Origin: an uncultured virus (IMG/VR IMGVR_UViG_2522125086_000002)
Taxonomy: Duplodnaviria > Heunggongvirae > Uroviricota > Caudoviricetes
Virus record (IMG/VR): IMGVR_UViG_2522125086_000002
Strand: one strand, 5' to 3'
Length of the DNA: 62,330 nucleotides
Shown here: in pieces, positions 4,393 to 62,330 of the stretch
Layout of the letters: each line of letters begins with the position of its first letter
Position numbering within the stretch: position 1 is the stretch's first letter
The notes under the pieces: generated by a model
Told to the model about the DNA's origin: nothing
What the model saw: the letters and a program-made list of their open reading frames with translations, nothing else
Databases searched by the model: none
Program-made: the position numbers and the translations under genes

Positions 4393-4429
4393 ACTCCCAG
4401 GTTTTTGATTGAGAGCCTGGGAGTTTTTT
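4393..4429 (+). terminator. Rho-independent terminator; insertion target of the group IIC intron
   Basis: ACTCCCAGGTTTTT-GATT-GAGAGCCTGGGAGT, a 14-bp stem with G-U pairs, followed by a T run. Confidence 0.85.
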
Positions 4430-4501
4430 GTGTGCTCGGCATGTTCTATATCTGTAGGGTGAAAGTCCCGAACACGACCGCTGGTGGTAAGTGTTAGCGA
4501 A
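4430..4501 (+). ncRNA. Group IIC intron, 5' fragment (start of domain I)
   Basis: Starts GTGTG (GUGYG consensus) right after a terminator; CTCGGCATG and TAGGGTGAAAGTCCCGAAC...GTTAGC match the IIC domain I pattern. Confidence 0.85.
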
Positions 4502-4523
4502 GTCTCTACTCCGAGTTTGATAC
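4499..4523. other. Left att junction (intron half plus element arm)
   Basis: Arm AGTCTCTACTCCGAGTTTGATAC (4501-4523) is an imperfect inverted repeat (13/23) of 61849-61871. Confidence 0.75.
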
Positions 4524-4532
4524 CGAGCCATG

Positions 4533-4541
4533 TGATATAAT
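4533..4541 (+). promoter_or_regulatory. Extended -10 promoter (TGnTATAAT) for the first cargo gene
   Basis: TGATATAAT just inside the left end, upstream of ORF 4582. Confidence 0.5.
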
Positions 4542-4581: not shown

Positions 4582-5193
4582 TTGACTTGGTACTTAGCCT
4601 TGATTGATAAAGTGGAGGACTTTGAATTGTTATATGATTCCTTTAAGAAAGTTTATATTTGTGACTTTAAGATTCTTGAGGATGAACTTTTAGGCACTGA
4701 CAAGTACGTCTCGATTGATAAGAAAAATTATAAAACATTCTCATCAAAATACATGCAGCTATTCTTGAGTATTTGTAGCGGGATAGACTCTTTAGCTGAA
4801 GAATTCTGCTCTGCTTTGGATGAATCCAACAATGTAAAAAATAAAAGAAGTAGTATGTTGCAAAGGTTCCAGCAGATAAAAAATGATTATTGCGGAAACA
4901 TTGCGAATGAAATTGTGGAAGTTAATTTTGTTGGTTGTAGAGCATCTATTCATCCTTTTTCAAAATTTTCTGAACAGTCGTGTGGTGATTGGTGGCAAGA
5001 TTATAATCACGTAAAACATAGAAGAGCAGGTGAAGTAGAATCTTCTAATGGAAATATGTTTAACTATGAATTGGCTAATTTAAAGAATGTCCTACAAGCT
5101 TTATCGGCATATTATTTATTGATTTCTTTGGTAAACCGCTTTTTGAGCCCAAACGGTGAACCAGTTGAGTCTCAGTTGTTTTCGTGTAAGTGA
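4582..5193 (+). CDS. AT-rich hypothetical cargo protein, possibly HEPN-like (start may be a TTG near 4628)
   Basis: WWQDYNHVKHRR...ANLKNVLQALSA motif; GGAGG near 4614; AT-rich; convergent with the recombinase. Confidence 0.55.
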   Translation: MTWYLALIDKVEDFELLYDSFKKVYICDFKILEDELLGTDKYVSIDKKNYKTFSSKYMQLFLSICSGIDSLAEEFCSALDESNNVKNKRSSMLQRFQQIKNDYCGNIANEIVEVNFVGCRASIHPFSKFSEQSCGDWWQDYNHVKHRRAGEVESSNGNMFNYELANLKNVLQALSAYYLLISLVNRFLSPNGEPVESQLFSCK

Positions 5194-12243: not shown

Positions 12244-12783
12244 CTATATTCCCAGTTTTCCATTAACATCGTCCGCAAAACTGCTTAATCGTTCCATTAG
12301 CCAGTTTCCAGGACAGGATTTCCTAGCGAACCACCTATGAACGGTCAGAAGCATTTCATTCTCCTTAACCTCATATCTTAAGGCTTTCTCCCGATCTGCA
12401 ATCCATACAAGACGCTTTTTTCCATTCCTTCTGCAGATATCGACACAGAGTTTCACCAATGCAGAATACACCTCCGGTTTCATGGCATACGGCTCAGTCA
12501 GATCTGATGCGCATTCAATGGTTACGGCACGCTGGTCGTTGTCTCTTGATGATGAGCACCAGGATCGGTTCTGCTCATCAACGCAAAGGCCGATTCTGCC
12601 GTCAGCACCGATTGCATAGTTGCAGCTTGCCTGTCTGCTTCTGTCCTTAAAGCAGTCACAGATCCTCTCAACACTAAGCTGACCGACAACGGCATGAGGT
12701 GTGATTCTGCTGATGGAACAGGTCCTTTTCCCAGAATGGTTCGGACTCAATTTTGTAAAACTCACTAATGGACTATTTGCCAT
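12244..12783 (-). CDS. Endolysin, N-acetylmuramoyl-L-alanine amidase (Amidase_2), catalytic domain only
   Basis: ITPHAVVG, ASCNYAIG, VTIECAS, TVHRWFARKSCPG; downstream of the holin. Confidence 0.9.
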   Translation of the reverse strand: MANSPLVSFTKLSPNHSGKRTCSISRITPHAVVGQLSVERICDCFKDRSRQASCNYAIGADGRIGLCVDEQNRSWCSSSRDNDQRAVTIECASDLTEPYAMKPEVYSALVKLCVDICRRNGKKRLVWIADREKALRYEVKENEMLLTVHRWFARKSCPGNWLMERLSSFADDVNGKLGI

Positions 12784-13198
12784 TTTCGTTCTCCTTATTT
12801 TCTGATTTATCGTGTAACTGGTTTAAAGCCTTTTTGACCACAGTCGGTATCGGCAGACCAAGGTGTGATGCATTCTCAAGAAGGCTGATGCCTTCGTTTG
12901 AGAGGTAAAAGAAAATTACTGCAGTCCGCAGAACACTCCCGGTCTGAAAGATCCTCGTATCCAGAATGGTGGCAACACCAACAAGCATGAACACGATTAC
13001 CTTTCTGCAGATCCCTTTAAAGCCGATGGAGCTGGATAGATTGTTATCGACTATCCCGCACATGACACCGCTGATGTAGTCGATAACCGTAAAGGCAATC
13101 AGGGCATAAAGAAGACCATCACATCCTCCGAGAAAGTAACCCAGCCATCCGCCTATGCCCGTGAACATTGCCTGGAGCATATTCCAAAGCTCTCTCAT
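12773..13198 (-). CDS. Phage holin (holin_4_1 / toxin-secretion type)
   Basis: IGGWLGYFLGGCDG, DYISG, SNEGISLLENA; GGAG RBS before ATG 13198. Confidence 0.9.
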   Translation of the reverse strand: MRELWNMLQAMFTGIGGWLGYFLGGCDGLLYALIAFTVIDYISGVMCGIVDNNLSSSIGFKGICRKVIVFMLVGVATILDTRIFQTGSVLRTAVIFFYLSNEGISLLENASHLGLPIPTVVKKALNQLHDKSENKENENGK

Positions 13199-13212
13199 TT
13201 TGTTTCTCCCAA

Positions 13213-13238
13213 TAAAAAAGGCGACCTTTAAGCCGCCC
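13213..13238 (-). terminator. Terminator-like hairpin between the GT8 and holin genes
   Basis: Minus strand reads GGCGGCTTAAAGGTCGCC followed by TTTTTT. Confidence 0.45.
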
Positions 13239-13239
13239 G

Positions 13240-14073
13240 TCATTTCACTCTGTTTACGTTACTTCGTACTCGTCCGATAAAGTCTCTGTCGAGATATCCT
13301 TCCACCCGTTCGCAGGCAGAGAGGTATTTCTTCCACCAGGCATAGGCTCGAAAATCAAGATAGATGAATTTATTCCATGGTTTCTCCATTGAGAGGTAAT
13401 GCACCATCAGCGGTGCCATTTCCTTGTAGCCCGGATTGAACCAGATTGCATTAAACTCATTGGCAAGCGGATATTTCTTCTTGAAATGCAGATTCACGAA
13501 GTCCTGCTCCGGGCAGTACATGAAGTTTCCTTTTTCCTCAATTGTTTTGATAAATTTCTGATACAGCCCTTTGCATTCAGCCTTGTAGCACATAAGTCCG
13601 GTATTGAAATACAGCGGAGTGTTAACTACCTCCTTAAGGTTCATCTGCTTCATCCATCTGTCGCGGTTTTCACGTTCACTGACTCCGAAGATACCGGTCT
13701 TGTACTTTGATGTAATCTCCTCAAGCAGAGGAACCACAGAGCCGAGAAACAGAGTGTCCAAATCGAAGTTCAGGACACAGTCGGTTTCGGCAGAAACCTC
13801 CTCAAGAGCCTTAATCCTTTGTGCAATAGCAGGAACGGCACTGCGATGAATCATGAGTCTGTTACCTCCCACAGTGGCAAAAAGGTCATGCTGCGGAAAT
13901 GAAACATAACGAACCTCCACCAGTTCCTCCGGGACTACCGCAAGAACTCTACTGAGGTCAGTACCTTTTTCAGCGTAAATGATGAGTTCAATGCGGTTGT
14001 ATTTGAAAAATGAGCTGAGGGATACCACCGCCTGATTGATGTACCCCTCATCCAGAACTACGAATGCCTTCAT
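13240..14073 (-). CDS. Glycosyltransferase family 8
   Basis: DEGY, DLD (DxD), YFNTGLM, EQDFVN and HYLSMEKPW are GT8 hallmarks. Confidence 0.85.
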   Translation of the reverse strand: MKAFVVLDEGYINQAVVSLSSFFKYNRIELIIYAEKGTDLSRVLAVVPEELVEVRYVSFPQHDLFATVGGNRLMIHRSAVPAIAQRIKALEEVSAETDCVLNFDLDTLFLGSVVPLLEEITSKYKTGIFGVSERENRDRWMKQMNLKEVVNTPLYFNTGLMCYKAECKGLYQKFIKTIEEKGNFMYCPEQDFVNLHFKKKYPLANEFNAIWFNPGYKEMAPLMVHYLSMEKPWNKFIYLDFRAYAWWKKYLSACERVEGYLDRDFIGRVRSNVNRVK

Positions 14074-17000
14074 TGGTTATTCTCCTTTATGTCGTCTTTA
14101 AAAATGTCCTCTGAATAATTGATGAGCTTAAGTGAACAGCGGTTGCCGCTTTCCGGTTTAACGGCAGTAACCCAGCAGAGTTGCAGTTCACCGATGGCAA
14201 AAAGCGGATATTCGAGAGACTTGCCAAACTCGCTGTCCCAATCAATATCCGGGTAGGTATCAAGATAAAGTGTATGGCTGTCATTACGGTAAAAGGTATA
14301 TTCACCATAGGAGCCATCCTTTCTTGAGATATACACGATGCCTTCCCACACATCATCCGGTATCTCAATATCGGTGGTAACGGTCTGGCCGTTTATTCCG
14401 GTTATTCTTCCGGTGATGTTGGATAAGTTCTCATCAAGCATAAGTCCAACAAGGTCGTTAAACTGACAGTTGAGACCGTTAAGCTCGGTTTTGATTTCAT
14501 AGGTAACTCTGGTATTTCTGAGATACCTGAGTCTCCTCATGCCAAGAGCTACAGCATGGTCATAGTCTGTTACTCCCCAGGCATCAAGCTGCTCCTGATT
14601 ATCGGATTCAGGGTAGGAGGTAATGCGCTTATTCCCGTCAGCATCAACATGGCAGTACACCGTTTCGGTCTTGTAGGTCTTAGGCGAGGTGAAATTTACC
14701 ACCACCTCATCAACATCATCCTCCTTTGGCAGAGAACAGGTGATCACTGGACTTGAGGTCATATTGCTTTTGGTAAAAATCTGCGTTGGAGTTGCTCCCG
14801 CATAAAGCCTCTTAACCGATAAGGTATTGTCCCTTACCACCGGAACCGCAAATCCGCAGTTAAGAACATCCCTTAAACTTTCAAGTAATGTGCTGTCACT
14901 GTCGATAGAGCCGTTACATTCAAGTCCCTGAGAGCGCCAGAGCTCATCAAAATCCATCAGCGTATCGACATCAAGAATATTGCGGTATTTGGAGTTCCGC
15001 ACGATGTACTGAACCACGGGAGCAATATCTCTTGTTTCCACCAGAGGCAGATTATCTGAATACCCGAGAGCAGGAAGTTTTCTTGTCCAGTAAGTGGCAA
15101 GCTGATTTTCGGAAAGCTCGGATAAGGTTTCGTTTCCTTTGAACCTGCAGATGAGTACCGTCATGTTGTCATATCGGTCAATGGTGCTGATTACGCTTTT
15201 AAGGCCTACCCATTTAATCTCCTCAAGAGCACGGGTAGAGCCGTCCTCCTGGGAGGTTCTTAGAACCCTGAACTCATAATTTCCGGCGGTTGCAAGTTCG
15301 ATTCTTACCGTTTCAGCAAGCTGGTCATTGGTGTTGTTGATCCAGGTTTTCTCAATCACGGTGTACGGCTCATTTGAACCTGCTCGGCGGTACTCAATTT
15401 GAATGCTGATAGAAAGCTTGTCGAACTCACCATCATCGTTAAGCTTGCCGAGACCTCCCGGCATGGAGAAATCCAGCTCAAAGATTTTTGATTCAGCACC
15501 ATACGGACATGCCCGGTAAGGTCCAACATAACCGCCGTCACTTGCCTGACCGCTTACCAGAGTAAAAAGCACATGCTCCTGATTGACTCCGGTGGAATAA
15601 AAGCCATGCCAGTCTGAAATCTCACCGTAGCTGTCGTTAAGACGCTTAACCGTGTAGACACCGTTGATGTAATCAAGAATTTCATAAAGGCCGTTATCCT
15701 CATATGGATAATCCGCAGGCATCGGCTGAAACACAGAGCCAGCCAGGTGATTTGCCGTAGCGGTTATTTTCGTGTAGGGCTGAGACGGAGTAACCTCCTC
15801 GGGGTATGCAGGAACAGTCAAATCTGAACTGTCGAACTTTAGCGTAACATTCTCACCGGACCTTATCACTTCGAGTATTTCACAGAGCGCCTCGGTGGTA
15901 TTCGCCTCATCTTCGGTTACGGTTTTACCGCCGCTGCAGCCTGACGGAATGGTATCGTAGGTAATAGAAGTTACGGCAGAAAGAGTAACCTTCAAATAAT
16001 CACCATTACGGGTAATTACCTCGGTCCCGGTTTCCTCGTCAACGCTGGTCTGAATTTCTGTGGCTCTTGCACGGAAAAACTCATCAGACTTAAATCCGTC
16101 AGTGCATTTCAGCGTGAGCGTAGTAATACCAGATGCGGCATCAGTTTCTGCTGCAACAATCTCAGTACCGACAAGACGTGTGTTTCCTGCTCCGCTTAAC
16201 TCAAAGATTGTGCCGTTCGCCCATTTCAAATCAAGGTTCTGTTTAATGTGTACCGTCTCAGTACCGCCACCGGAGCAACCACCGTAACCGATGCTGTATA
16301 TCCTGTAGTTGCAGCCGCTGAAGGTATTGCCCTTAAACTCAAGATTCACACCGTTCATGGAGGAGGTGTCGATTTTACCCTGACCGCTTTTTAAGGTATG
16401 ACCGCTCTGGGTAACCTCGGTTGATGAGTACCAGCAGTACCAGGATTTGTCCTCCGGGGAATTTTCAGCGGTAATCTTTACTCCCGGTTCAATGACATAA
16501 GCGGAGCAACCCTTGAGTTCACTGATTGGCGTCTCGCCGATGTAGATGTCTGAGTGATCTGACTTGTAGTCATAATGCCCGATCCCTTGGCATAAAATCA
16601 TGTCACAGAAAAGAGTATTGTTGCGGTAAAACACATGACGGTCAGCGAGGTAATCAGGGAATCTCTTGAAGAAGCCAAAGTTCTCCGGGATGATTTCCAT
16701 GAGCTTTACCTTATTGCCCTGGACATTTACATCATAGATGGAGTTTCCCTGTTTGGTGTTTTTCTGTTTATTCTTGCCGAGCTTATGCATACTCACCATG
16801 GCATAAACGGCACTCGCCACACCAATCACCACGGAAATGATGGCAGCGATGGCAGTACCGGTTACACCGGGTTCGATGACGAATTTTAAGTGATCGCATT
16901 TCTGGATTAAGAGTGCAGGCCATTCAGTCTGTTCTACCTTTCTGCCGTTAACAAAGAGCGACAGATAAGGTTTCAGTTCAGGATTGTATGAAGCAATCTG

Positions 17001-17099: not shown

Positions 17100-17484
17100 T
17101 TTTCCTCTTTGGAAGATTTGTATGTCTGTAGATCTTTGTTTCTACAAACTGCATTGATTTGATCTTTTCAACTCTGGCATGACGATTAAGACCGGTATGC
17201 AGCATTTCTCCTTTACCGAGATGTACCGCCACATGAAAGATTTGGCCATGCCGGAAGAAGGCAATTACATCACCGAACTTCGCCTCGTCAGCAGTAATCT
17301 CCCGAAAGGAATTCCGGGAAGTTTCCTTCTCGTATCCGTCCTTAATGCAGAAATCTGTGTAGTCATCAAGCTCTATGCCAAGCTCCCGGCGGTAGAACTC
17401 GATGACAAGTCCCCAGCAGTCAAGGAATGGGTATTTTCTGCCGTTTGGTGTGTGTCTGATGAGAAGATAATGATTAAGCCACAT
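17089..17484 (-). CDS. NlpC/P60 tail tip assembly protein (gpK-like)
   Basis: DCWGLV, GDVIAF, HVAV, MLH. Confidence 0.85.
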   Translation of the reverse strand: MWLNHYLLIRHTPNGRKYPFLDCWGLVIEFYRRELGIELDDYTDFCIKDGYEKETSRNSFREITADEAKFGDVIAFFRHGQIFHVAVHLGKGEMLHTGLNRHARVEKIKSMQFVETKIYRHTNLPKRKNET

Positions 17485-17938: not shown

Positions 17939-17947
17939 AATGCCTCC

Positions 17948-18622: not shown

Positions 18623-18625
18623 GAA

Positions 18626-45250: not shown

Positions 45251-45253
45251 AAT

Positions 45254-46848: not shown

Positions 46849-46877
46849 GTTTAACCTCCTTAAATTGGGTGGCCTAT

Positions 46878-49881: not shown

Positions 49882-49882
49882 T

Positions 49883-50410: not shown

Positions 50411-50705
50411 GGAGATATTTTGATTCGATAAAAACAATGAAATGCGATTGATATTGTGGTGAATAGGTTGCTTGAAAATACAGTATCGATCGCGGCCTAG
50501 ACACTATAGCTTATATAAACGAATTTTTGAAGTTTGTAAAATAATTGTATAAAAAATATTCTTGTTTTCAGAATTTTATGTTTTTTGTGGTTTTGTAATA
50601 AGAATTTTGTATCACAACTGTGGTAACATGCAAAGTTAATCAATTTGTATGAGTTGGTGATAATTTATGTCCTGTTACTGATATTTTGTGAGGGAGGAAC
50701 AGCCT

Positions 50706-53474
50706 ATGTTGCCCGAAGAACTTGCTAGAGAAAAAATTGATAAGCAGTTGAAAAGTGTGGGCTGGGATATTGTTTCAAGAAACGAGTATATTCCCAAGAG
50801 TACTGCGGCAGTTAAAGAAGCTCTTATGAAAGGCAACAAAGAAAGCGATTATTTGCTTTTCGTAGATGACAAAGCTATTGCTGTAGTTGAGGCTAAACGT
50901 GAAGAAAACCCACTTGGTGAGGATGTAAAAGTCCAAGCAGAGAACTACGCTAACACACCTAAAGACTGGTATGGTGTATGGTTTTCAGGGCAAATTCCTT
51001 TGGTTTATTTAGCTAACGGAAAGAAAATTTATTACAAGAATTTGTTGCATCGTGGAAGCAGATACGAAGAAATTCCAAGCATGCATTCTCCTAAAAAAAT
51101 GCTCCAACTTATAGGCCAATCATCCGAATATGGTGCACTTCCTTTCCTTGATAAGAATGGATTACGAGATTGCCAGTATCAGGCTGAAATAAAGTTCGAA
51201 GAATCGATTAAAGAGGGAAAGAAAAAGAGTCTTGCTGTTTTGGCTACAGGTTCAGGAAAAACTTACCTTGCTTGTCTTGCTACATACAGACTTTTAAATT
51301 ATACCTCGGCTCAAAGAGTTTTGTTCTTAGCAGATCGGAATAATCTCTCTCGCCAAGCTGAAAGCGAGTTTTGTAAGTTTAATCGTACAGAAGGACAGCA
51401 GAAAATGAGTTCTTTGTATGAAATTAAAAGACTCAGAAAAGATACAGACATAAAAGCTGATATTGTAATTTCTACAATTCAAAAACTTTTTGCTGTATTA
51501 ACTGGAGCTGCCCTAGAAGATGATGATAGTGAAGATGCTGAGGATGAAAAGATTTTTTCAGAGGAAGACGATACCAAGATAATAGAACTAGGCGATAATC
51601 TAAAACTTCCTCCAGATCATTTTCAACTCATAATTGTAGACGAATGCCATAGGTCCATTTACGGTAAATGGCGTGCTGTATTAGACTATTTTTCTGGTGC
51701 TCACGTTCTTGGTCTGACTGCTACCCCTACTCCTGAAGCCTATGCTTTCTTCAATAAGAATGTAATTGAAGAGTATTCTTTCGATGATTCAGTTGTTGAT
51801 GGAGTTAATGTTCCATCACGTGTATACAGAATTATCACAAAGGTTACCACTCATGGAGGAACTATTAAAGCAGGGGCCACCGTTGAAGAAATCAGTCGTA
51901 GAACTGATGAACAAAGCGAGGGCGCTAGCCGAAAAAAGGTTGTTTTCCATAACCCTGTAGAGTACAAGCCTAATGTTCTTGATCGTTCTGTTGTAAATGT
52001 TTCTCAGATTAAAGAGGTTTTGGAAACATATAAAACAGCCATATATGATGAACTTTACCCTGAGCGTGAAAGAAAATGGGAATATATTCCAAAAACGCTT
52101 ATATTTGCAAAAGATGATAATCATGCCTCTCAGATTGTTGATCTTGTAGAAGAAGTTTTTAGTTCTGAATTTGAATTAGGAAAGATCCCTGAACATTTTG
52201 TACAGAAGATTACCTATAGGGGCGGAAATTCTAACGAATTGATTAGGGATTTGAATAATGAGAAAGATTTCCGCATAGCTGTTACCGTTACTCTTGTTGC
52301 TACCGGAACTGATGTTCCTCCTTTAGAAGTTGTTCTTTTTATGAAAGATGTTCAATCTGAAGTTCTATATACGCAGATGAAGGGAAGAGGATGTAGAACA
52401 ATTGGTGATGATAAGCTAAAAGAAGTTACCCCAAATGCAAATACAAAGGAATTTTTTTATATTGTTGATGCTGTTGGAGTTACTGAGCATTCTAAGGGGA
52501 TACCTCACCCAACGATTGGTCCTGGACATAAAGATAAGATATTAACATTGGAACAACTGCTAGAGCGATTGGCTCATAATGAATTAAGTGATGATAATTT
52601 GTGTTTACTGTCAAATTATTGTGCAATGATTAATCATAGGTACGACAATAGTCAGTTATTCGGAAGACATTTGGATTATTTTATTACGACATTTGGCTTT
52701 GCGCCGAAGGAAATATCCTACAAAATTAATGAGGCATTTAATCAGCAATCGTTACCGCCGTACAATAGTCCTTCTGAGCATAATACAGAACGAATGGCTT
52801 TGATTTCCAATTTAATATCGAATATTAAGGCTAGAGAAAAACTGTTGGAAATGCAACAAGGCTATATTATAAAAACAGATAATGACCCAGATGAGTTGAT
52901 TTATTCTGGTTTTTCGATTGAAACCGCAAAGACATTTATTGATGAGTTTGAGAAATATCTTGATAAAAATAAGGATGGCATAGAAGCTCTCCGTATAATA
53001 TACAATTCTGAGGATACTCTGATTACACACAGCATGCTTACAGAATTAAGAGAAAGGCTACTTTCTGAAAGTCGTCAGTACGATGTGTACCAAATATGGA
53101 AAAACTATAAGCTTCTAGATGAAAAAGGCAACGTGGACGAACTGGATGTAAAAACGAATTTTAAGGCACTTACAAATTTGATTCAGATTGTTCGTTTCGC
53201 TTATGGTAAAAATGAAAAGTTGTTCTCCTTACTTAAAGGCTATGCAAAGCGATTTAGTCTTTACTGCGGACAAGAGCAAAGGGTTCTTTCTGAGTCCCAA
53301 ATAGAGATTATGAAACAAATAGCTGACTACATAATTAATGATGGGGGAATATCACTAATGGAGTTAAACGAGATCGATACAGATTTATGGCGGAAAGGAG
53401 TGACGTCTTTTAAGCCAACTGTTTTTGCAGAAGAAATACAGATATTGACTCGTTTCTTATTGAAAGCCGCTTAG
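50706..53474 (+). CDS. hsdR: Type I restriction subunit R
   Basis: DYLL...VEAK nuclease, ATGSGKT, DECH, LTATP, TGTDVP, QMKGRGCR. Confidence 0.95.
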   Translation: MLPEELAREKIDKQLKSVGWDIVSRNEYIPKSTAAVKEALMKGNKESDYLLFVDDKAIAVVEAKREENPLGEDVKVQAENYANTPKDWYGVWFSGQIPLVYLANGKKIYYKNLLHRGSRYEEIPSMHSPKKMLQLIGQSSEYGALPFLDKNGLRDCQYQAEIKFEESIKEGKKKSLAVLATGSGKTYLACLATYRLLNYTSAQRVLFLADRNNLSRQAESEFCKFNRTEGQQKMSSLYEIKRLRKDTDIKADIVISTIQKLFAVLTGAALEDDDSEDAEDEKIFSEEDDTKIIELGDNLKLPPDHFQLIIVDECHRSIYGKWRAVLDYFSGAHVLGLTATPTPEAYAFFNKNVIEEYSFDDSVVDGVNVPSRVYRIITKVTTHGGTIKAGATVEEISRRTDEQSEGASRKKVVFHNPVEYKPNVLDRSVVNVSQIKEVLETYKTAIYDELYPERERKWEYIPKTLIFAKDDNHASQIVDLVEEVFSSEFELGKIPEHFVQKITYRGGNSNELIRDLNNEKDFRIAVTVTLVATGTDVPPLEVVLFMKDVQSEVLYTQMKGRGCRTIGDDKLKEVTPNANTKEFFYIVDAVGVTEHSKGIPHPTIGPGHKDKILTLEQLLERLAHNELSDDNLCLLSNYCAMINHRYDNSQLFGRHLDYFITTFGFAPKEISYKINEAFNQQSLPPYNSPSEHNTERMALISNLISNIKAREKLLEMQQGYIIKTDNDPDELIYSGFSIETAKTFIDEFEKYLDKNKDGIEALRIIYNSEDTLITHSMLTELRERLLSESRQYDVYQIWKNYKLLDEKGNVDELDVKTNFKALTNLIQIVRFAYGKNEKLFSLLKGYAKRFSLYCGQEQRVLSESQIEIMKQIADYIINDGGISLMELNEIDTDLWRKGVTSFKPTVFAEEIQILTRFLLKAA

Positions 53475-53489
53475 GAGGTTTTGAAACAA

Positions 53490-54911
53490 ATGGCTTCAAC
53501 ACAGAAATCTGAATCCGCACTGGTTTCCAAGGTGTGGAATATAGCTAATGTTTTAGCTGCTTCAGGGGTCGGATTCACCGATTATATTACACAATTAACA
53601 TACATCCTTTTTTTGAAGATGGATGATGAAAAAGAGAAATTAGGTCTACAAAGTTATCTTCCTGCTGGATATAAATGGGGGGAGCTCACGACATTAACAG
53701 GTACAGATCTTGTTGAAAAATATGAAGATATTCTGAAGGAATTATCTAGTAGCAAAGGACTTGTTGGAACCATTTTTACAAAAGCTACTAATAAAATTAA
53801 TAAACCTGTTATGTTAAAAAAAGTCATCGACATGGTTAGTGAAGATGATTGGTACATGATGGAAGGCGATCTGAAGGGGGCAATATACGAGAAAATTTTG
53901 GAAAAAAATGGGCAGGATAAAAAAAGTGGAGCTGGACAATACTTCACCCCAAGAGCCCTTATTTCTGCAATTGTTGATGTTGTAGATCCTAAAATTGACG
54001 AGACTGTTGCAGATCCTTGTTGCGGTACAGCTGGCTTTCTTTTATCCGCTTATGAGCACATGAAAAAGCAGAGCAAAGATGTAGAAAAGCAAAGGTTTTT
54101 GAAAAATAATGCATTTTATGGTGCCGACAATACAGACCTAGTTGTTACTCTTGCTTCAATGAATCTCTATCTTCATGATATCGGTGTCAATAAAAGCCCT
54201 ATTAGGCTTTGTGACTCTCTGACTGATAAAACGGATGATATGTATAAGGTCGTTATGACTAACCCTCCTTTTGGTACAAGACCTCAGGGGAGTGTGGACG
54301 TATCGGCTAATAGACCTGAATTTATTAAGACATCAGATAATCAGGTTAATTTTCTTCAACATATTATGTCTATCGTCAAGACAGGCGGACGTGTGGGGGT
54401 AGTCTTACCGGATAGTATATTAACAGACGGTGAGTCAACTAAGAAAGTGCGCGATAAGTTAATGAAAGATTTTAATTTGCATACGATTCTGAGATTACCT
54501 ACCGGTATCTTTTATGCCAATGGCGTAAAGACTAATGTTTTATTCTTCGATAAAGGTGAACCGACTAAAGATATTTGGGTGTACGATTATCGAACAGGCG
54601 TCAAGCACACGTTGGTTAATAAACCGATGACTAGAGAACATTTGCAGGATTTTGTTGATTGCTATTGTTCTGGGCATATATGTGACCGAAAAGAAACGTA
54701 TGATGCTGAAAAGAACCCGAACGGAAGGTGGCGTAAATTTTCTGAATCAGAAGTCAAAGCTAGGGAAGATTTGAACTTTAAGTGGCTTGATTTTACAGAG
54801 GATGATGATCGAACTGTTAATGAAATGCTGAGTGAAATACAGAGTAAAGTTAACGGAATGAATGAAGCGGTTGCTCAGTTAAAAGAACTTTTAAAAGGAA
54901 TTGAAGATTGA
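53490..54911 (+). CDS. hsdM: Type I methyltransferase subunit M
   Basis: GQYFTPR, DPCCGTAGF, NPPF, LRLPTGIFYA. Confidence 0.95.
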   Translation: MASTQKSESALVSKVWNIANVLAASGVGFTDYITQLTYILFLKMDDEKEKLGLQSYLPAGYKWGELTTLTGTDLVEKYEDILKELSSSKGLVGTIFTKATNKINKPVMLKKVIDMVSEDDWYMMEGDLKGAIYEKILEKNGQDKKSGAGQYFTPRALISAIVDVVDPKIDETVADPCCGTAGFLLSAYEHMKKQSKDVEKQRFLKNNAFYGADNTDLVVTLASMNLYLHDIGVNKSPIRLCDSLTDKTDDMYKVVMTNPPFGTRPQGSVDVSANRPEFIKTSDNQVNFLQHIMSIVKTGGRVGVVLPDSILTDGESTKKVRDKLMKDFNLHTILRLPTGIFYANGVKTNVLFFDKGEPTKDIWVYDYRTGVKHTLVNKPMTREHLQDFVDCYCSGHICDRKETYDAEKNPNGRWRKFSESEVKAREDLNFKWLDFTEDDDRTVNEMLSEIQSKVNGMNEAVAQLKELLKGIED

Positions 54912-56458
54912 TGGATACTAAAGTACTAAAACAGAAGATCCTTGATCTTGCTATTAGAGGAAAACTTGTACCTCAAGATCCGAATGATGAACCGGCATCC
55001 GTTTTATTAGAAAAAATCCGAGCTGAGAAGCAGCAGATGGTGAAGGATGGTATGCTGAAGTCCAAGGATCTTAAGAATGATACTATTATCTTTGTTGGTG
55101 AAGATAATTTGCATTATGAGAAGTTCAGCGATGGAACTATCAAATGCCTGAAAGATGAAACAAAATTTTTTAAAATTCCAAAATCTTGGAGTTTTGTAAG
55201 GATTAGGGATATTGCATCGGTTAAAGGAGGAAAAAGGATACCAAAGGGAAAAGAATTCAGTGCGGTTCCCACTCCTCACGCCTATATTCGCGTAACAAAT
55301 ATGAAAAATCGCACAATAACTACAAGCGATTTGAAATACATATCAGATGAGATTTATGAAACAATACGGAATTATACAATTTCTAAAACTGATTTGTATT
55401 TAACTATAGCTGGAACCATTGGTCTTGTAGGTGAAGTTCCTGATTTGTTGGATGGGATGAACTTAACAGAGAATGCTGTCAAAGTTACACCTTTCAGCAT
55501 AAATAAAACGTTCTTGTGTTTTTGTTTATTATCATGTTTTGTACAAAATCAATTTCAAGATAAAACACATCAAGTAGCACAACCAAAATTAGCAATTGAA
55601 CGTATTTTAAACACGATAATTCCTTTACCCCCACTTAACGAACAAACACTAATTACTAATTCCGTAAAGACTGCTTTTGATCTTGTTGACTGCGTTGAAA
55701 AACAAAATATAGCATTAGGTGAGATTATAACTAAAACTAAATCCAAAATTCTTGATCTCGCTATTCGAGGTAAGCTAGTTCCTCAAGATCCTAATGATGA
55801 GCCTGTCTCTGTTCTTTTAGAACGCATACATCAAGAAAAAGAAGGACTCATTAAAGCCGGCAAACTCAAGCGTGATAAACGAGAATCAGTCATCTTCCGT
55901 GGTGAGGATAACTCTTATTATGAGAAGTTCAGCGACGGGACTGTTGAATGTATTAGAAAAGAAATACCTTTTGCAATACCTGAAAATTGGAATTGGGTAA
56001 GGCTAAAAAATATTTGTTATAACATATATGCTGGTGGAGATAAGCCCTCAGATTTTGTTAAAGAAAAAGATGCTGAACATTCTATACCTGTAGTCGCCAA
56101 TGGTACTACAAATGAAGGTATAATGGGTTTTACAAAAACATCAACAGCGAAAGCAAATACAATTACTATTGCTGGCAGAGGGACAATAGGTTTTCCCGTT
56201 TATAGAAATTATGAGTATTGTCCCATCGTGAGATTACTTGTCATTAATCAATGTAATTTGATTAATCCTCTTTTTCTCTATTACTATTTGTATGCTCGTA
56301 GGCTTGATAGTGTTGGTTCAAGCATACCTCAACTAACAGTTCCAATGGTTAAGCCCAAACTCATTCCTTTGCCACCTTTAAAAGAACAACAAACCATAGT
56401 GAATCGGATAATTGAATTATTATCCGTTATAGAAAGTATTGATGCTAATCTTATGTAA
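54911..56458 (+). CDS. hsdS: Type I specificity subunit S (expressed copy, two TRDs)
   Basis: Repeated KILDLAIRGKLVPQDPNDEP; IP..W..VR; PLPPL.EQ; ATG overlaps the hsdM stop. Confidence 0.95.
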   Translation: MDTKVLKQKILDLAIRGKLVPQDPNDEPASVLLEKIRAEKQQMVKDGMLKSKDLKNDTIIFVGEDNLHYEKFSDGTIKCLKDETKFFKIPKSWSFVRIRDIASVKGGKRIPKGKEFSAVPTPHAYIRVTNMKNRTITTSDLKYISDEIYETIRNYTISKTDLYLTIAGTIGLVGEVPDLLDGMNLTENAVKVTPFSINKTFLCFCLLSCFVQNQFQDKTHQVAQPKLAIERILNTIIPLPPLNEQTLITNSVKTAFDLVDCVEKQNIALGEIITKTKSKILDLAIRGKLVPQDPNDEPVSVLLERIHQEKEGLIKAGKLKRDKRESVIFRGEDNSYYEKFSDGTVECIRKEIPFAIPENWNWVRLKNICYNIYAGGDKPSDFVKEKDAEHSIPVVANGTTNEGIMGFTKTSTAKANTITIAGRGTIGFPVYRNYEYCPIVRLLVINQCNLINPLFLYYYLYARRLDSVGSSIPQLTVPMVKPKLIPLPPLKEQQTIVNRIIELLSVIESIDANLM

Positions 56459-57807
56459 GAAAAGTTTCCATATAATTAAGCACATTCATAATCTTCTGGA
56501 TAGTACTAACAATTCTATTTTGCTCTTCTAACGGAGGCAACGGAAAAGGAATTCGCAGTACATCTTCTCTTGCAATTCCTGGGATAATACCATTCACGGA
56601 CGATTTTAATTGAGTTACATATGATCTTAAAAAAAGTTGTATGTAACTCTTGTTCACACCATAAGAAGAACGAATGGCCATTATTTGTCTAGCAATGTGC
56701 ACTTTTTCTTCTCTTAAGGTTGCAATATGGCCAACTGTTCCCTTACAGGTTAATAACAGATCTCCTGCAAGAGCTATAGATTTAGGTGTTTTTGTCCATC
56801 TATTTATGATGACCTTACCACAATCGATGTTACTAGCTCCGGTAATGTAAGGAATACCTTCACCGTTTGCATTGTAGCTATCTTTTGATAAATCTTGCCC
56901 AGATATAAGTTCGATGATGTTTTCAAACCGTACCCAAGTCCAAGATTTAGGAATATCAACTATATTTTTATTTTTAATAAGCGTAATAGAACCGTCGCTA
57001 AACTTCTCATAATAAGAGTTATCCTCACCACGGAATATAACAGATTCTCGTTTATCTCGTTTGAGTTTACCTGCCTTGATGAGTTCTTCCTTTTCGTGTC
57101 GTATGCGTTCGAGTAGCTTTGAAGCTGGTTCATCATTAGGATCTTGAGAGACAAGCTTACCACGAATTGCAAGATCTAGAATTTTTGATTTACATTTTAA
57201 GAGTAAAGATTTTAGATCTGTTTGCTGCGATTCAATGATATTTGAATACAACTGAAGATTTTTGATCGATTTAATGATTAATTCCTGCTCATTAATTGGA
57301 GGAACAGGGATAAGCAATTCTTTCAAAGAAGAACCATTGCAATTTGGCTGACCAACACCAACAGACTTATCTGTAATTTGATTCCAATAACACTTGCTGT
57401 TAAAAAAATCATATACATAATCTCGTGATAGCTTTCCAATTAAGCGAATTCGAATAAGATATGAAGCGTATACAGAATCGAAAGGAAGCTCTTTAATAAG
57501 AAAAGACTTTCCGACTGTTGCCCCCGTTCTCGCAAAGACAATATCTCCGGTCATAAGTCTGTATTGTTCTGGACTTTGTAGAGTCGTAAAAGGTACTTTA
57601 TCCCATTCAACTTTTCCATCTTGAATATCAGTTATGCGGAGCAATCTATGAGAACCGCTATTTTCCGCAGAATTACTTACACCGTACTGGATATCTGAAC
57701 ACAGTGAACTTAAACGACTCCAACGCCATCCGTTCGGTAAGGTGAATGGAATTATATCTTCAATGCAAGTAATAGAACCGTCGCTGAACTTCTCATAATG
57801 CAAATTA
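55105..57807. repeat. Inverted repeats of an hsdS shufflon
   Basis: 27-bp perfect IR 55105-55131/57781-57807 and 35-bp perfect IR 55895-55929/57001-57035; all four sites share ATTATGAGAAGTTYAGCGAYGG. Confidence 0.9.
56451..57807 (-). pseudogene. hsdS: Silent inverted hsdS cassette (two more TRDs, no native N-terminus)
   Basis: Homology to hsdS starts exactly at the IR (NLHYEKFSDG); convergent with the expressed hsdS. Confidence 0.85.
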
Positions 57808-58040
57808 GCGGTACAAGAGAAAGGACAAAACTCATTTTCAATAACGATTTCTATCAACATTTCACAGAAAATAATTATGATATGTGATATGTTGTCACGA
57901 ATTTGCAAATTTAACGTTATTTAGCCTTTATTATCCCTACAGTATTTGGTTATGAGTTTTTTATGCGACTATGATAATTTCATTTGTAAATGTTGATTTG
58001 CAATAATAAGTTCGATGCACAGTTTAAAGGAGAGCTATAG

Positions 58041-60509
58041 ATGACAGCACAGTTTAAATGGGTGGAGTTTTATACAGAATTTGCTACAAAGCTATTGGTA
58101 TACAAAAACGACAGAACATCCTTAATAGAACTTCTTCAAAAAGTATATTCGTGCATTGGTATGAAACTTCCCACGTTAGATAGTTATCCTGTACCACATG
58201 ACATAGATCCTTTTACAATATTTGGGTTATTTAATAAGGGGATCACTGATGCTAACCGAATTAGCATACTGAATGGAATCAAGAGTGTGTTTGAAATATC
58301 AGCTGACATACCTAATGATTTTTCAGGCATTCCTGTATTGAATAATATGATGGCTACTTTTTATGCTTTTGAAGGTGATAATCGTCGCAAGAGTGATGAT
58401 ATTAACAACCTATGGGGAATTTTTGAATGCGCGATCAGACTAGCCGAAAATGATTCTGAACAAAATAGAGTAGCATTTTCATCTGCATATAATAAAGTGA
58501 AGCTACAGTTTGCAGTTCGCTGGAATTTAACAATGGGGTTGTATTGGATTCGTCCCTATAATTTCATTAATCTTGATGCGAGAAATAGGGAGTTTATGAG
58601 TAACCCAGATAATACATCTCTCAGCGTTGCAGAAGAAGTACAAGCACTTAAATCAGTACCTTCTGCAGAGAAGTATCTTGATATTTGTGATAAATGTTTG
58701 TTGGCTATTAGATCTGGAAAATATGGGTATTCTTCATTTCCTGAACTTTCTTACAAAGCGTGGGGCGTTTCTGTTGAAAATAGTCTGGTTAAATCAGGAA
58801 GGTCAAATGCTGCCTTCTTAAGATGGTTTGGACCAGTTATTCAGGCTTTGCGTGATTTAGGTGGTTCTGCTACTCCTGTAGACGCTAGAAAGAAAATTAT
58901 TGAAAACGAAAACCTTTCAGATGATGAGGTAAATGCTACTAGAGGAAAGACGCACGTCAATAAATTTGAGAATGAAGTAGGTTTTGCCAAAAGCTATCTG
59001 GTTAAAGCAGGGTATATCGATAATAAGGTATATGGCATATGGACGTTGACGGATAAAGGTCAGAATGTTGAGATCACAGATGAACTTGCATCCGAAATAT
59101 TTAAGAATGGGGTGGCAGATAAAGAACCTTTTGGCAGTGGCGATGGTGATGCCGATAGAGGTATAAAAACAACACATTATTGGTTATATTCTCCTGGAGA
59201 AGGGGCCGAAATTTGGAAAGATTGTTGTGATAATGGAATAATGGCCATCGGTTGGGATGAAATTGGAGATTTGAATCAATATAAGTCTAAGGCTGAAATG
59301 AAGGAGGCAATGAAGGAGTTTATAGATTCTAAGAAACCTTTTACTATGGCGGCTCACGCAACTTGGCAGTTTGTAAATGATATGAAACCTGGGGATGTTG
59401 TTTTTGCCAAAAAAGGAAGAAGCACTGTCATAGGCCGCGGTATTGTTCTTTCTGATTATGAGTTTGATGATTCTCGTAATTACACTAAAAATGTGCGTAC
59501 TGTAAATTGGACTCACAAAGGGGAATGGCCACATCCAGGACAGGCAGCAATGAAAACTCTTACTGATATTACCGCATATACTGATTATGTTGAAGAGTTG
59601 AAAGCTCTGTTTGAGGATGATGAAATTGATCCTGATGAGGAGACTTCTGTGGTTAGACCTGCCTACGGCAAGGATGATTTTATCAATGAAGTTTATATTG
59701 ATGAAGCAAGCTACGACACGTTGGTTGGACTTGTCCTTAACAAGAAAAATGTAATACTTCAAGGAGCTCCAGGTGTAGGGAAAACTTTTATAGCTAAGCG
59801 GTTAGCTTATTCTATAATGGGAGAGAAGGAGCCAAATCGCGTCATGATGGTGCAGTTCCATCAAAGCTATTCATATGAAGATTTCATCATGGGATTTCGA
59901 CCTTCAGAGAAAGGTTTTGAACTTAAAAAAGGAACATTTTACAATTTTTGCAAAAAAGCAGAGATTGATAGTGATAACAAATACTTCTTCATAATTGATG
60001 AAATCAATCGCGGTAATTTAAGTAAGATTTTTGGGGAGCTGTTTATGCTCATCGAGAATGATAAGCGTGGTGTTGAGATTCAACTCCTTTATTCGGATGA
60101 GAAGTTCTTGGTGCCCAAAAATGTTTATATTATTGGTATGATGAATACTGCGGATAGAAGTTTGGCAATGCTAGATTATGCACTGCGTCGTAGATTTGCT
60201 TTCTACGAGATAAAACCCGGTTTTAGCACAGATGGTTTTCGGAAGTATTGTAGTTGTTTGTCTAATGCAAAGTTCGATAAATTAATTCAGTGCGTCAAAG
60301 ATTTAAACGAGTCTATTTCAATGGATGAGTCTCTAGGTGAAGGTTTCTGTATAGGACATAGCTATTTTTGTAATCTAAAAGAGATTAGAGAACAAACTTT
60401 GTCCGAGATTGTTGAATTTGAACTCATTCCATTACTAAAGGAGTATTGGTTCGATGATTCTGTCAAAGTGAAAACATGGGCTGAAAACTTGAGGAATGCA
60501 ATAAAGTGA
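58041..60509 (+). CDS. mcrB: McrB-family AAA+ GTPase with Mrr_N-like winged helix and EVE/PUA-like reader domains
   Basis: GAPGVGKT, FHQSYSYEDF, IDEINRG, MNTADRS, ALRRRF; ALRDLGGSA...GIWTLTDKG; HYWLYSPG...MKPGDVVF. Confidence 0.9.
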   Translation: MTAQFKWVEFYTEFATKLLVYKNDRTSLIELLQKVYSCIGMKLPTLDSYPVPHDIDPFTIFGLFNKGITDANRISILNGIKSVFEISADIPNDFSGIPVLNNMMATFYAFEGDNRRKSDDINNLWGIFECAIRLAENDSEQNRVAFSSAYNKVKLQFAVRWNLTMGLYWIRPYNFINLDARNREFMSNPDNTSLSVAEEVQALKSVPSAEKYLDICDKCLLAIRSGKYGYSSFPELSYKAWGVSVENSLVKSGRSNAAFLRWFGPVIQALRDLGGSATPVDARKKIIENENLSDDEVNATRGKTHVNKFENEVGFAKSYLVKAGYIDNKVYGIWTLTDKGQNVEITDELASEIFKNGVADKEPFGSGDGDADRGIKTTHYWLYSPGEGAEIWKDCCDNGIMAIGWDEIGDLNQYKSKAEMKEAMKEFIDSKKPFTMAAHATWQFVNDMKPGDVVFAKKGRSTVIGRGIVLSDYEFDDSRNYTKNVRTVNWTHKGEWPHPGQAAMKTLTDITAYTDYVEELKALFEDDEIDPDEETSVVRPAYGKDDFINEVYIDEASYDTLVGLVLNKKNVILQGAPGVGKTFIAKRLAYSIMGEKEPNRVMMVQFHQSYSYEDFIMGFRPSEKGFELKKGTFYNFCKKAEIDSDNKYFFIIDEINRGNLSKIFGELFMLIENDKRGVEIQLLYSDEKFLVPKNVYIIGMMNTADRSLAMLDYALRRRFAFYEIKPGFSTDGFRKYCSCLSNAKFDKLIQCVKDLNESISMDESLGEGFCIGHSYFCNLKEIREQTLSEIVEFELIPLLKEYWFDDSVKVKTWAENLRNAIK

Positions 60510-61558
60510 TCCGCATACAGAACATTTATTACATGCTGGCCTATGCGTTTCAAGTGTTGAATGAACAAGGGTACAAGAAAATTGCTACACAGAATTTTGA
60601 AAATGCTACAGAACTTTGTGCAGCAATTCTTGCCCAAGGTCTCAGTTCTCAGATAAAACGAGGTCTTGGTAAAGAATACATACCTCATACAGAGGAGTTG
60701 TCATTTATCCGAGGGAAAATTGATATCGCCGAAACCATTAAAACGATGGCGCTTCAACGTAAGCATATAGTATGTTCTTACGATGAATTCTCTGTTAATT
60801 CGTATATGAATAGGATCATCAAGTCTACTGTTTTGATTCTGCTCCGTGCTGATATAACAAAAGCACGTAAAAAGGAATTACGAAAGTTGATGGTGTATTT
60901 CGGAGATGTGGAGGTCATAGACTTACACTCGGTTGATTGGAATGTGCATTATAATCGCAATAATCAGACCTACCGGATGTTGATATCCATATGTTATCTT
61001 ATCGTAAAGGGACTATTACAAACTCAAAAAGATGGCTCGGAAAAGCTTATGGATTTTATAGATGAACAACGGATGCATCGGCTTTATGAGAAGTTTATTT
61101 TGGAATATTACCGTAAGAAATATCCACAGTTATCAGCTAACGCCTCACAAATTCCGTGGCAGCTAGATGATGGCATATGTGCAATGTTACCGATTATGCA
61201 GACCGATATAATGCTTTCTTACAAAGAAAAAACGTTAATCATAGATGCGAAATATTATGCGCATTCAACTCAAGTTCAGTATGACAAGCATACGCTCCAT
61301 TCAGGAAATTTGTACCAAATTTTTACATACGTGAAAAATAAGGCTACTGAGCTAAATAAGGCTACAGAGCCAGAGGGACAAGTACACAAAGTGTCAGGAA
61401 TGCTTTTATATGCTAAGACCGATGAAGAAATTTATCCTGATAATGAGTATCGTATGAGTGGAAATAAGATCAGTGTTCGAACGCTCGATCTGAACTGTGA
61501 TTTTTCAGAAATAGCCACACAACTGAATAAAATAGTAACTGATCATTTTAATCTATAA
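60506..61558 (+). CDS. mcrC: McrC restriction nuclease subunit
   Basis: IQNIYYMLAYA, LYEKFI, TDIML...IIDAKYY, NLYQIFTY, GMLLYA. Confidence 0.9.
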   Translation: MIRIQNIYYMLAYAFQVLNEQGYKKIATQNFENATELCAAILAQGLSSQIKRGLGKEYIPHTEELSFIRGKIDIAETIKTMALQRKHIVCSYDEFSVNSYMNRIIKSTVLILLRADITKARKKELRKLMVYFGDVEVIDLHSVDWNVHYNRNNQTYRMLISICYLIVKGLLQTQKDGSEKLMDFIDEQRMHRLYEKFILEYYRKKYPQLSANASQIPWQLDDGICAMLPIMQTDIMLSYKEKTLIIDAKYYAHSTQVQYDKHTLHSGNLYQIFTYVKNKATELNKATEPEGQVHKVSGMLLYAKTDEEIYPDNEYRMSGNKISVRTLDLNCDFSEIATQLNKIVTDHFNL

Positions 61559-61848
61559 GAATTGTTGTTCTTCATGTTTTTGTATGGAAGATGGCAGAGA
61601 TACGGTATATCGAACAAGCATTGAAAAATAGGTGAAGAAAGAACATTTAAGCAGTTCCATACATATTTAAATTTTTTCTTTATTTTTCAATTATTTAGAT
61701 GGTGTGGGGCATATAATTGAACCGTGGAGAAAAAGTAACACGACTGTAAGTTATTTGTCTTGTATTTTGGCTGCGGTCGAATTTATTTTGTTTCTGCAAT
61801 CCCTTATATATCAACGTTTTACACCAGTTTTTACTACATTTTAGGTTC

Positions 61849-61874
61849 GTATCAAAAACCACGTAGGATTAGAA
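61849..61874. other. Right att junction (element arm plus intron half)
   Basis: GTATCAAAAACCACGTAGGATTA then GAA, then intron sequence TTGCAAGG. Confidence 0.75.
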
Positions 61875-62330
61875 TTGCAAGGTGGTTACAGTAATGTAAT
61901 AGCTGAAAGAAGCAATAGTGAAATCCCGAACTGACGTACAGGAATCACTTCAGGCAGGCAGAGTGGATAAGAGTGCAAAATAACTCGAAGTCCGATAGCC
62001 AGACGGAAACTCTGAATGTAAAGGTGGCAGTGGTGGGAGGAAAGATGTAGGGCTTACCCGAGGAGATCCTGTCAGCTCATTAATGGGTAGTAACAACGAA
62101 TGGCAGGAAGTCAGCAGAGGCCGTAGTAGCGAGGAGTATGCGTGTGAAGGGCCGAACAAAACGAGTGTGAAAATTTAAGGAACGCAGCCAGAGTCCAGAA
62201 AACAAGGCATAAGACATAAGCGACGGCCGGCCTGCAGGGAAAGATAGCACGGAATGTGAAGGATACCTCAGGGGTGAGATGATGACGGTGAGCGATATAG
62301 AGATATGAGTAGCATAAACTTCGAACCGAT
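61872..62330 (+). ncRNA. Group IIC intron, continuation (rest of domain I, domains II-III, start of IV); runs off the window
   Basis: GCAAGG...CTGAAAGAAGC; GGAAAGATGTAGGGCTTACCCGAGGAGATC (end of DI); AAGTCAGCAGAGGCCGTAGTA...GAAGGGCCGAAC (DIII). Confidence 0.85.
62305..62330 (+). CDS. Possible start of the intron-encoded reverse transcriptase/maturase (truncated by the window edge)
   Basis: ATG (MSSINFEP...) at the expected position in domain IV; no RT motif is visible within the window. Confidence 0.3.

Follow-up and report, generated by a model that had tools for sequence, protein, structure and literature searches.

The window, as we call the whole stretch of 62,330 nucleotides analysed here (IMG/VR record IMGVR_UViG_2522125086_000002; G000:C2:584369-646698), contains the two parts of one group IIC intron at 4430-4500 and 61872-62330. 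Between them lie 57,371 bp (4501-61871) that by their gene content form a complete siphovirus-type prophage, with two adjacent genes for large serine recombinases (LSR1 and LSR2) near its left end (Table 1). The intron stands behind the terminator of a host open reading frame (ORF), for which no Pfam family was found at E<=1e-5 and which has a weak hint of LptC (E 0.067). The hairpin, GTGTG at 4430 and the motifs quoted in an earlier sequence-only reading of this DNA are all found where that reading had placed them: TAGGGTGAAAGTCCCGAAC and GTTAGCGAA are located at 4455-4501, and the right intron part starts with GAATTGCAAGG at 61872, the other quoted motifs coming after it.

Table 1. Coordinates of the split intron, the attachment sites and the prophage genes in the window
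Feature	Position	Strand	Basis or remark
Host ORF upstream of the intron, 147 aa	3889..4332	+	ORF list; its terminator precedes the intron
Intrinsic-terminator-like hairpin, 14-bp stem at 4393-4424, plus T run	4393..4429	+	Intron homing context
Intron 5' segment, GTGTG... to ...GTTAGC; B arm of attL	4430..4498	+	100% identity to uninterrupted copies
Crossover dinucleotide GA, attL	4499..4500	.	Common to attL, attR, intact intron (attB) and attP
P' arm, AGTCTCTACTCCGAGTTTGATAC	4501..4523	+	13/23 inverted match to P arm; variants at every related junction
ORF between attL and the integrases, 203 aa	4582..5193	+	
LSR1, large serine recombinase, 529 aa	5240..6829	-	Pfam Resolvase 6e-33, Recombinase 1e-23, Zn_ribbon_recom 3e-11
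LSR2, large serine recombinase, 575 aa	6826..8553	-	Pfam Resolvase 2e-30, Recombinase 8e-20, Zn_ribbon_recom 1e-10
Conserved ORF, 147 aa	8756-9199	-	
AAA_13 ATPase, 792 aa	9690-12068	-	PADLOC candidate system PDC-S06 2e-40; PrrC weaker, 2e-13
Lysis, tail, head and packaging genes: amidase, holin, GT8, tail proteins, tail tube, head completion, capsid, ClpP protease, portal, TerL	12244..29768	-	Pfam
Early region: Nmad4, amidoligase, GGACT, N6/N4 methylase, SNF2 helicase, D5-type primase, PolA, Enc34-type single-stranded DNA-binding protein, DUF2800 nuclease	29850..47672	-	Pfam
HU, within the early region	40984-41265	+	Pfam
Cargo adjoining attR, 13-kb block: methyltransferase-S (MTase-S) fusion, type I restriction-modification (R-M) genes (HsdR, HsdM, two HsdS), McrB/McrC-like pair	48157..61558	+	Pfam, PADLOC
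P arm, GTATCAAAAACCACGTAGGATTA	61849..61871	+	Inverted match to P' arm; seen in attP of G033:C64 and of the X3 contig
Crossover dinucleotide GA, attR	61872..61873	.	Paralog comparison
Remaining intron up to the window end: rest of domain I, later domains, start of reverse transcriptase (RT)/maturase ORF	61874..62330	+	Rfam; 100% identity to uninterrupted copies

The unity of the two intron parts is evident from uninterrupted paralogs in the same genome. When the copy at G000:C1:1898040- was used as a BLAST query, its positions 13-89 matched C2:588793-588869 and its positions 87-495 matched C2:646240-646648, both at 100% identity, and the matches to the left and right pieces overlapped by 3 nt, GAA. 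Six copies in G000 read across the join without interruption, as ...GTGTTAGCGAATTGCAAGG... (...GTTAGC-GA-ATTGCAAGG...). Because both halves are 100% identical to uninterrupted paralogs, the join that the sequence-only reading had proposed, of 4430-4498 to 61872 onward, is correct to the base, and the intact genomic copies that it had suggested looking for do exist. It had further suggested comparing the joined halves with group II intron models; Rfam models for domains I-IV match the right half, namely group-II-D1D4-3 (RF02001; 61885-62051, 119 bits, E 8e-24) and group-II-D1D4-1 (RF01998; 62069-62152, 41 bits).

Much of the G000 sequence is N, among it everything to the right of the window and the interior of most intron copies. 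The class of the intron was judged in part from L021, a full-length copy in a genome of the same genus with 99% identity over the 5' 542 nt. In this copy Rfam recognises domain V (RF00029, 47.6 bits). Its intron-encoded protein (IEP) of 437 aa, with whose start the IEP-like beginning of the ORF from ATG 62305 in the window agrees, contains RVT_1 and GIIM only and no endonuclease domain. The best solved relatives of the L021 protein are 7uim (324 bits) and 6ar1, 'GsI-IIC RT' (308 bits), compared with 170 bits for LtrA (IIA) and 138 bits for a IIB maturase; we take 7uim, like 5hhj, to be of class C. Immediately 5' of GTGTG, a hairpin (-11 to -24 kcal/mol) and a T run are present in 9/9 G000 copies with a visible upstream flank, in keeping with the earlier remark that IIC introns are often multicopy and insert after terminators. 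At the sequence level, all testable class C features (GTGTG, domains I and V, the IEP type and the post-terminator site) are thus found in this intron or in its full-length copy L021.

We also compared contigs of public sequencing runs with window 4300-4900. In contigs of the gut metagenomes X3, X4 and X5 the host flank 4300-4429 runs directly into unrelated sequence after the terminator, and the locus therefore also exists without the intron (and without the prophage). This intron-free allele, together with the multicopy spread, implies past mobility of the intron, with self-splicing and retrohoming as its putative activities. Shortened forms were seen as well: a decayed copy, G000:C3:237380-238239(-) (L019), ends within the RT ORF after ~860 nt, and two contigs from the same genus (G039:C50 and G040:C25) have a common ~87-nt 5' stub that ends just past GCAAGG, beyond the attachment site.

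As the sequence-only reading had noted, the prophage ends form 23-bp arms (P and P') around a central GA, with an inverted match at 13 of 23 positions. Random pairs of 23-mers from the window match at 5.8 +/- 2.1 positions, and 13 inverted matches were reached by 0.17% of 20,000 such pairs. The attP predicted by joining the right end, GA and the left end was found as continuous DNA in two independent sources. In sheep-gut metagenome X3, a 545-nt contig covers 4499-4900 with 10 differences, and of the 54 letters that precede 4499 in this contig the last 30 are identical to window 61842-61871. In a related genome, the 9.5-kb contig G033:C64 encodes LSR2 and LSR1 at 88% and 92% identity to those of the window, and ~180 nt past LSR1 it contains the junction ...GTATCAAAAACCACGTAGGATTA-GA-AATCTCTATACAGAATTTGATACCGAG..., that is, P arm, GA and P' arm, the P side being identical to window 61839-61874 over 36 nt through GAA. 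The exact crossover could be deduced from a paralogous element of G000, in which the P arm is followed either by GA and host-like sequence (C5:81301) or by GA and a P' arm (C5:65441); since the two diverge right after GA, this is the crossover dinucleotide. GA is shared by attL, attR, attB and attP, and in the window's case the third base, A, is shared too. A BLAST-short search for further P arms in G000 returned the window's own only, and a pattern scan of viral contigs for the P' arm gave 0 matches; a loose pattern scan for both arms across the whole genome gave hundreds of chance matches and was dropped.

The second LSR-pair element (75% and 64% identical; G000:C5:67753-81301) lies just past a gene that reads by eye as flagellin. 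Its attL-type junction is ...CCAGG-GA-ATCTCTCACAG... and its attR-type junction stands at 81301. To its left, G000:C5:61592-65441 is a partial copy of its right end (92-98% identity) that terminates at 65441 in an attP-like junction composed of P arm, GA and a different P' arm. Moreover, a conserved stretch of ~125 nt that opens with the variant P' arm ATCCCTATGCTGAGTACGATACAAAG... occurs at C5:149104, C5:152119, C5:65443, C5:55865 and C6:122198(-), each time after ..GA(A) and in one case at a split intron. These five stretches may represent one end of a family of LSR-mobilised elements that are small or decayed. The translation of the C5 LSR2 breaks off at 346 aa, although a tblastn alignment runs unbroken through 567 residues, and this sequence was left out of the comparison of the LSRs.

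The two recombinases, whose genes overlap by 4 nt and whose products are 43% identical, cover the Resolvase profile almost entirely (1-144/145 in LSR1 and 1-143/145 in LSR2), and both contain PF07508 and PF13408, the C-terminal recombinase domain and zinc ribbon. Near the N-terminus both have a YARVS motif, the serine of which we take, from knowledge of the family, to be the catalytic nucleophile. The nearest solved chains to LSR1 are 3g13 (a conjugative-transposon recombinase), SPbeta SprA/YokA (9dxd) and the TP901-1 integrase (3bvp). By these features LSR1 and LSR2 are large serine recombinases of the phage-integrase type, predicted to catalyse attP x attB recombination and to depend on a directionality factor for excision. 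DUF4368 was not reported by Pfam at E<=1e-5 in either protein. A tandem LSR pair is present at 4 other places in G000.

To place the attachment site within the ribozyme, the 5'-terminal ~300 nt of 22 intron copies of the bacterial family were modelled together with RNAalifold, which yielded 72 pairs, 43 of them with compensatory changes. In this model GA (alignment columns 72-73), ~70 nt into the intron, lies within an unpaired stretch of domain I, UAGCGAAUUGCAA, between hairpins at columns 43-66 and 82-106, and the attB half-sites would overlap the strands of the flanking helices. GA occupies the crossover place in 11 of the 22 intron lineages, the others having AA, TA or CA.

Splitting of the intron at this site is recurrent. 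Three of the nine site-containing copies in G000 itself, namely those in the window, at C5:149103 and at C6:61906, are interrupted at one and the same nucleotide; each stands behind its own terminator, and the arms joined to them are related but not the same. Junction DNA (window 4425-4640) matched 8/401 genomes of the order, G000 included, with a junction-spanning match in a genome of another genus (G089) and arm-only matches in G097 and G026; searches of five further genomes revealed split copies at four loci of G091 and in G033, G034 and G087. An exact scan of metagenome contigs for the P' arm returned 15 contigs, of which five are intron 5' parts ending ...AGCGA-A, one of them with the same flank as G089. 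Counted by distinct flanks, there are 15 split-intron loci with 7 arm variants, found in four metagenome contigs and in six genomes that belong to three genera; the loci in G033 and G034 have similar flanks and may be one inherited event. Among 52 unique intron 5' ends in the DNA examined, 35 are intact, 14 are split with a recognisable arm (two pairs being the same locus) and 3 are other cases, namely the variant arm on C5, an intact variant and a hybrid. The loci were gathered by junction-directed queries, and the unbiased counts are only 3/9 in G000 and 5/15 in the arm-only scan.

Taken together, we consider it very probable that a temperate phage, a member of a multi-targeting family, integrated by serine-recombinase attP x attB exchange into one copy of a multicopy group IIC intron. 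The proposal of a 57-kb serine-integrase prophage in domain I of such an intron had been made from the letters of the window, and it is now upheld by the intact paralogs, the two independent attP junctions, the LSRs beside attL and the class C features of the intron. In the proposed course of events, the intron would have retrohomed behind the terminator of the upstream ORF, as suggested by the intron-free allele and the class C context. Exchange at GA between attP and the DNA of intron domain I, as the four att forms show, then left the first 71 nt of the intron at attL and the remainder at attR, 57 kb apart. With these 71 nt separated from the rest, this intron copy is unable to fold as a ribozyme while the prophage is present. 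Excision would rejoin the intron and may restore a working copy, and in that sense the phage could be a hyperparasite and an on/off switch for a retroelement, as the sequence-only reading had suggested. Repeated or mobile DNA may be preferred as a target because it is dispensable and always available.

Several observations weigh against this interpretation or narrow it. The 3' part of the window's intron beyond 62330, domain V included, reads N in the genome sequence, and the window holds the only complete prophage found with both intron halves around it. The other split introns whose neighbourhood was examined are relics: five loci are without an LSR gene in the visible DNA beside the junction, and a sixth (G091:C38) has kept only a C-terminal fragment of LSR1. 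Past the arm at C5:149103 come a PIN gene, an IS110 transposase and finally host genes; at C6:61906 there are ~1 kb, an insertion sequence (IS)-like repeat and a masked stretch. G033:C32 and G034:C63 gave no LSR and no phage-gene match, and in these two contigs and G091:C38 the intron 3' part was not found within 12-13 kb. In G089 the 3' part begins only 3.2 kb past the attL-type junction and is preceded by DUF285 antisense, not by a P arm. Excision was sought in the source-like run X1, where neither attP nor a restored attB of the window locus was present in contigs, which drop rare forms; the loose end at 4501 in X1 is a 75-nt high-depth repeat unitig and uninformative on excision. The sequence-only reading had also asked whether close homologues of the recombinases are flanked by split IIC introns, and here the answer was negative: at LSR1-homolog loci of mostly 51-75% identity, 0 of 80 in genome contigs and 0 of 80 in viral contigs had the intron 5' motif at the expected place. 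Such homologs evidently use other sites, and one of them (L140, 69%) is located in a gene whose translation reads by eye as a DNA methylase.

Other targets are in use even among much closer relatives, and these count against an exclusive specificity for the intron. In G087, contig C72 encodes LSR1 at 98% identity and contig C47 carries a phage end, 94-95% identical at the nucleotide level to window 4499-4640, that abuts not an intron but an unannotated ORF ending ...DTSRVTNM; we infer that the two contigs are adjacent and belong to one prophage. A relative in G026:C96, 90% identical in nucleotides over 10.4 kb of tail and lysis genes (LSR1 92.6%, LSR2 81%), has its arm against a Y1_Tnp (IS200-type tnpA) gene (E 5e-5 on 26 visible residues). 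The differences between its LSRs and those of the window concentrate in the C-terminal, DNA-binding halves, which is compatible with a shifted specificity and proves nothing. In G097 and L059 the arm lies in an AAA_14 ATPase gene (E 3e-29) beside a truncated LSR1 of 91% identity. The non-intron members of the 15 P'-arm metagenome contigs have their junctions in three DUF285 genes, one DTSRVTNM ORF, one AAA_14 site (four contigs) and one further site (two contigs), those in DUF285 (E 1e-25 to 1e-27) always coming after the repeat motif ...V(T/R)xM. By eye, no motif could be recognised that the intron attB shares with the attBs in DUF285, IS200 and AAA_14. The boundary is identical at every junction, GA and then the arm.

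LSR1 at 91-100% identity is thus found at four targets: the intron (window), the unannotated ORF (G087), the Y1_Tnp gene (G026) and the AAA_14 gene (G097/L059). The operational definition in the excerpted text of PMC10083194 calls an LSR multi-targeting if a cluster at >=90% identity occurs in more than 3 unrelated target classes, and by that definition the LSR1 cluster, with four, is therefore multi-targeting. The claim of the sequence-only reading that the integrases target a conserved ribozyme sequence holds in so far as the intron site is hit again and again (15 loci, 7 arm variants), but not as an exclusive preference, near-identical LSR1 being found at unrelated targets. Likewise, of the two kinds of divergence between homologous elements that it had said would speak against it, unrelated targets were found (G087, G026, DUF285, AAA_14), whereas the boundaries proved constant (GA, P' arm). 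In the DNA examined, the intron junction is the most often re-used landing site of this phage family. We also observed hybrid sites. In G087:C112:2038-2115 (L052) the intron B arm and GA are followed by CACCATGTTC..., as after ...DM in a DUF285 repeat; since the sequence past GA is the DUF285 continuation, the left half of one attB class is here joined to the right half of another. In G089:C162:8900-8930 (L053) DUF285 antisense and GA are followed by the intron B' arm. In a simple reading, these hybrid sites would be scars left when prophages in different landing pads, or the att sites of such prophages, recombined with each other.

It is possible, although we doubt it, that the intron serves a promiscuous integrase as an incidental pseudo-site, hit often only through its many copies and with no adaptation between phage and intron. 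The near-identical LSRs at other targets would fit this well, as would the lack of a shared attB motif and the number of target classes, which for LSR1 at >=91% identity is at least four, in line with the definition in the excerpt of PMC10083194. However, the 15 loci are cut at exactly one nucleotide by 7 diverged arm variants in three genera, the ~ten intron copies make up an estimated ~0.5% of a 4-Mb genome with the site being one position in each, and 3/9 copies are occupied in G000. That seven diverged arm lineages re-use one nucleotide argues for more than chance. The opposite extreme, in which the integrases accept the intron alone and all other junctions arose by secondary rearrangement, would account for the hybrid sites in G087:C112 and G089:C162, which look like rearrangement products. 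It is very unlikely in view of the apparently complete relative with a clean junction in the IS200-type tnpA and of the clean B-GA-P' junctions in three different DUF285 genes.

Accounts that dispense with site-specific integration are less probable still. A transposon or transposable phage, for which GAA would be a 3-bp target-site duplication, could explain why GAA stands at both ends, but such a duplication would vary with the target, whereas the same GA core is found at every independent insertion; the attP junction has a single copy of the core, and Pfam, run on 54 ORFs of the window, found no transposase while two LSRs lie beside the end. We therefore give this explanation hardly any credence. 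The same applies to misassembly across a repeat, to retrohoming of the intron into the phage and to homologous recombination with an intron that the phage carried, even though the intron is multicopy and contigs do end where assemblies meet it. Duplicated intron sequence is to be expected after homologous recombination, but the halves are complementary and overlap by only 3 nt; a phage-borne intron is at odds with attP forms that have no intron sequence; and misassembly is at odds with the attL junction words in X1 contigs and the analogous junctions in many independent assemblies. Integration at attP x attB by a multi-targeting phage family thus remains our preferred explanation. A more far-reaching version of it, which we offer tentatively and doubt as a conjunction of all its parts, would have the family specialised on DNA that amplifies itself or is repeated, namely the conserved single-stranded junction of the IIC ribozyme, DUF285 units and the IS200 transposase gene. 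Here the tandem integrases may each serve a different class of pad, recombination between occupied copies would reshuffle the chromosome and leave hybrid attB scars (G087:C112, G089:C162), and each integration would reversibly silence one copy of the retroelement.

The remaining content of the prophage is that of a temperate phage with cargo at both ends. The ORF between attL and the integrases (4582..5193) has no Pfam or PADLOC match, and G033:C64, with its att site ~180 nt past the LSR1 match, leaves little room for a counterpart. Just inside the P' arm, at 4531-4550 (+), TGTGATATAAT looks by eye like an extended -10 promoter facing this ORF; the consensus scan did not list it. The AAA_13 ATPase is probably phage-borne defence cargo beside the integrase module. 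Nmad4, DUF7698, GGACT/AIG2 and amidoligase (29850-32804, -) adjoin TerL and resemble phage DNA-hypermodification modules. In the 13-kb block next to attR, the two S genes of the type I R-M system are in opposite orientation (54908-56458, +, and 56451-57908, -), and G033:C64 had no BLAST match to this cargo (48157-61558) beyond the P-arm region. On the host side, the ORF at 1-1680 (-) is a calcineurin-like phosphoesterase (PF00149) fused to a T4-type RNA ligase (PF09511) and looks like an RNA-repair enzyme.

In the full text of open-licence PMC papers and of bioRxiv, with supplementary tables outside the scope, we found no report that places the attB of a phage or LSR element in a group II intron. 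The excerpts that came closest describe the reverse situation, introns inside prophages (PMC11318856), or RT genes that flank phage WO, as an association only (PMC9203015). With a catalytic intron as the attachment site, parasitism of one element on another gains a new layer beyond the host genes and the one dispersed repeat known before. Behind terminators the retroelement makes fresh landing pads, dispensable and conserved, which the phage then uses up. The numerous attL relics, together with the hybrid sites, suggest an influence of this interplay on genome structure in Succinivibrionaceae-like gut bacteria. For the building of tools, an LSR pair with a defined attP and several natural attB classes is a tractable case of how multi-targeting integrases read DNA, and it also allows one to ask whether tandem integrases divide labour.

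Compared with known group IIC introns (O. iheyensis, GsI-IIC, E. rectale), the intron itself is ordinary, with the same post-terminator insertion, compact IEP without endonuclease and domain I/V matches; what is new is the use of its domain I DNA as a phage attachment site. Prophages that split host genes by means of an LSR are well known, among them SPbeta, integrated by SprA in spsM, A118 in comK and skin in sigK. These share with the prophage described here an LSR at the prophage end, simple attP and attB sites with a 2-bp core and target halves that excision would rejoin, but here the target is the ribozyme DNA of a multicopy retroelement, there are two tandem LSRs, and several target classes are used. 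Two LSRs act together in CcrA/CcrB of SCCmec, which likewise are adjacent diverged LSR genes at the end of a mobile element, in that case a cassette and here a phage. The window's LSRs have in common with the multi-targeting LSRs of Durrant et al. 2022, as described in the excerpt of PMC10083194, a >=90% identity cluster in more than 3 target classes. According to the same excerpt, DUF4368 marks most of that published clade without strictly defining it; here DUF4368 is lacking, the core is GA and not TT, and one defined intron site is re-used often. Of the known cases the nearest is phiRv1, a prophage-like element with a serine recombinase that sits in a REP13E12 repeat of Mycobacterium tuberculosis (PMC9317374, in excerpt). 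As far as that text goes, it shares with our prophage an LSR element whose attB lies in a dispersed repeat and several landing sites per genome. Bibb and Hatfull reportedly found in 2002 that several REP13E12 copies can serve as attB. REP13E12, however, is not a self-splicing intron, whereas the target described here is the gene of a retrohoming catalytic RNA, with many occupied copies and relics across three genera.

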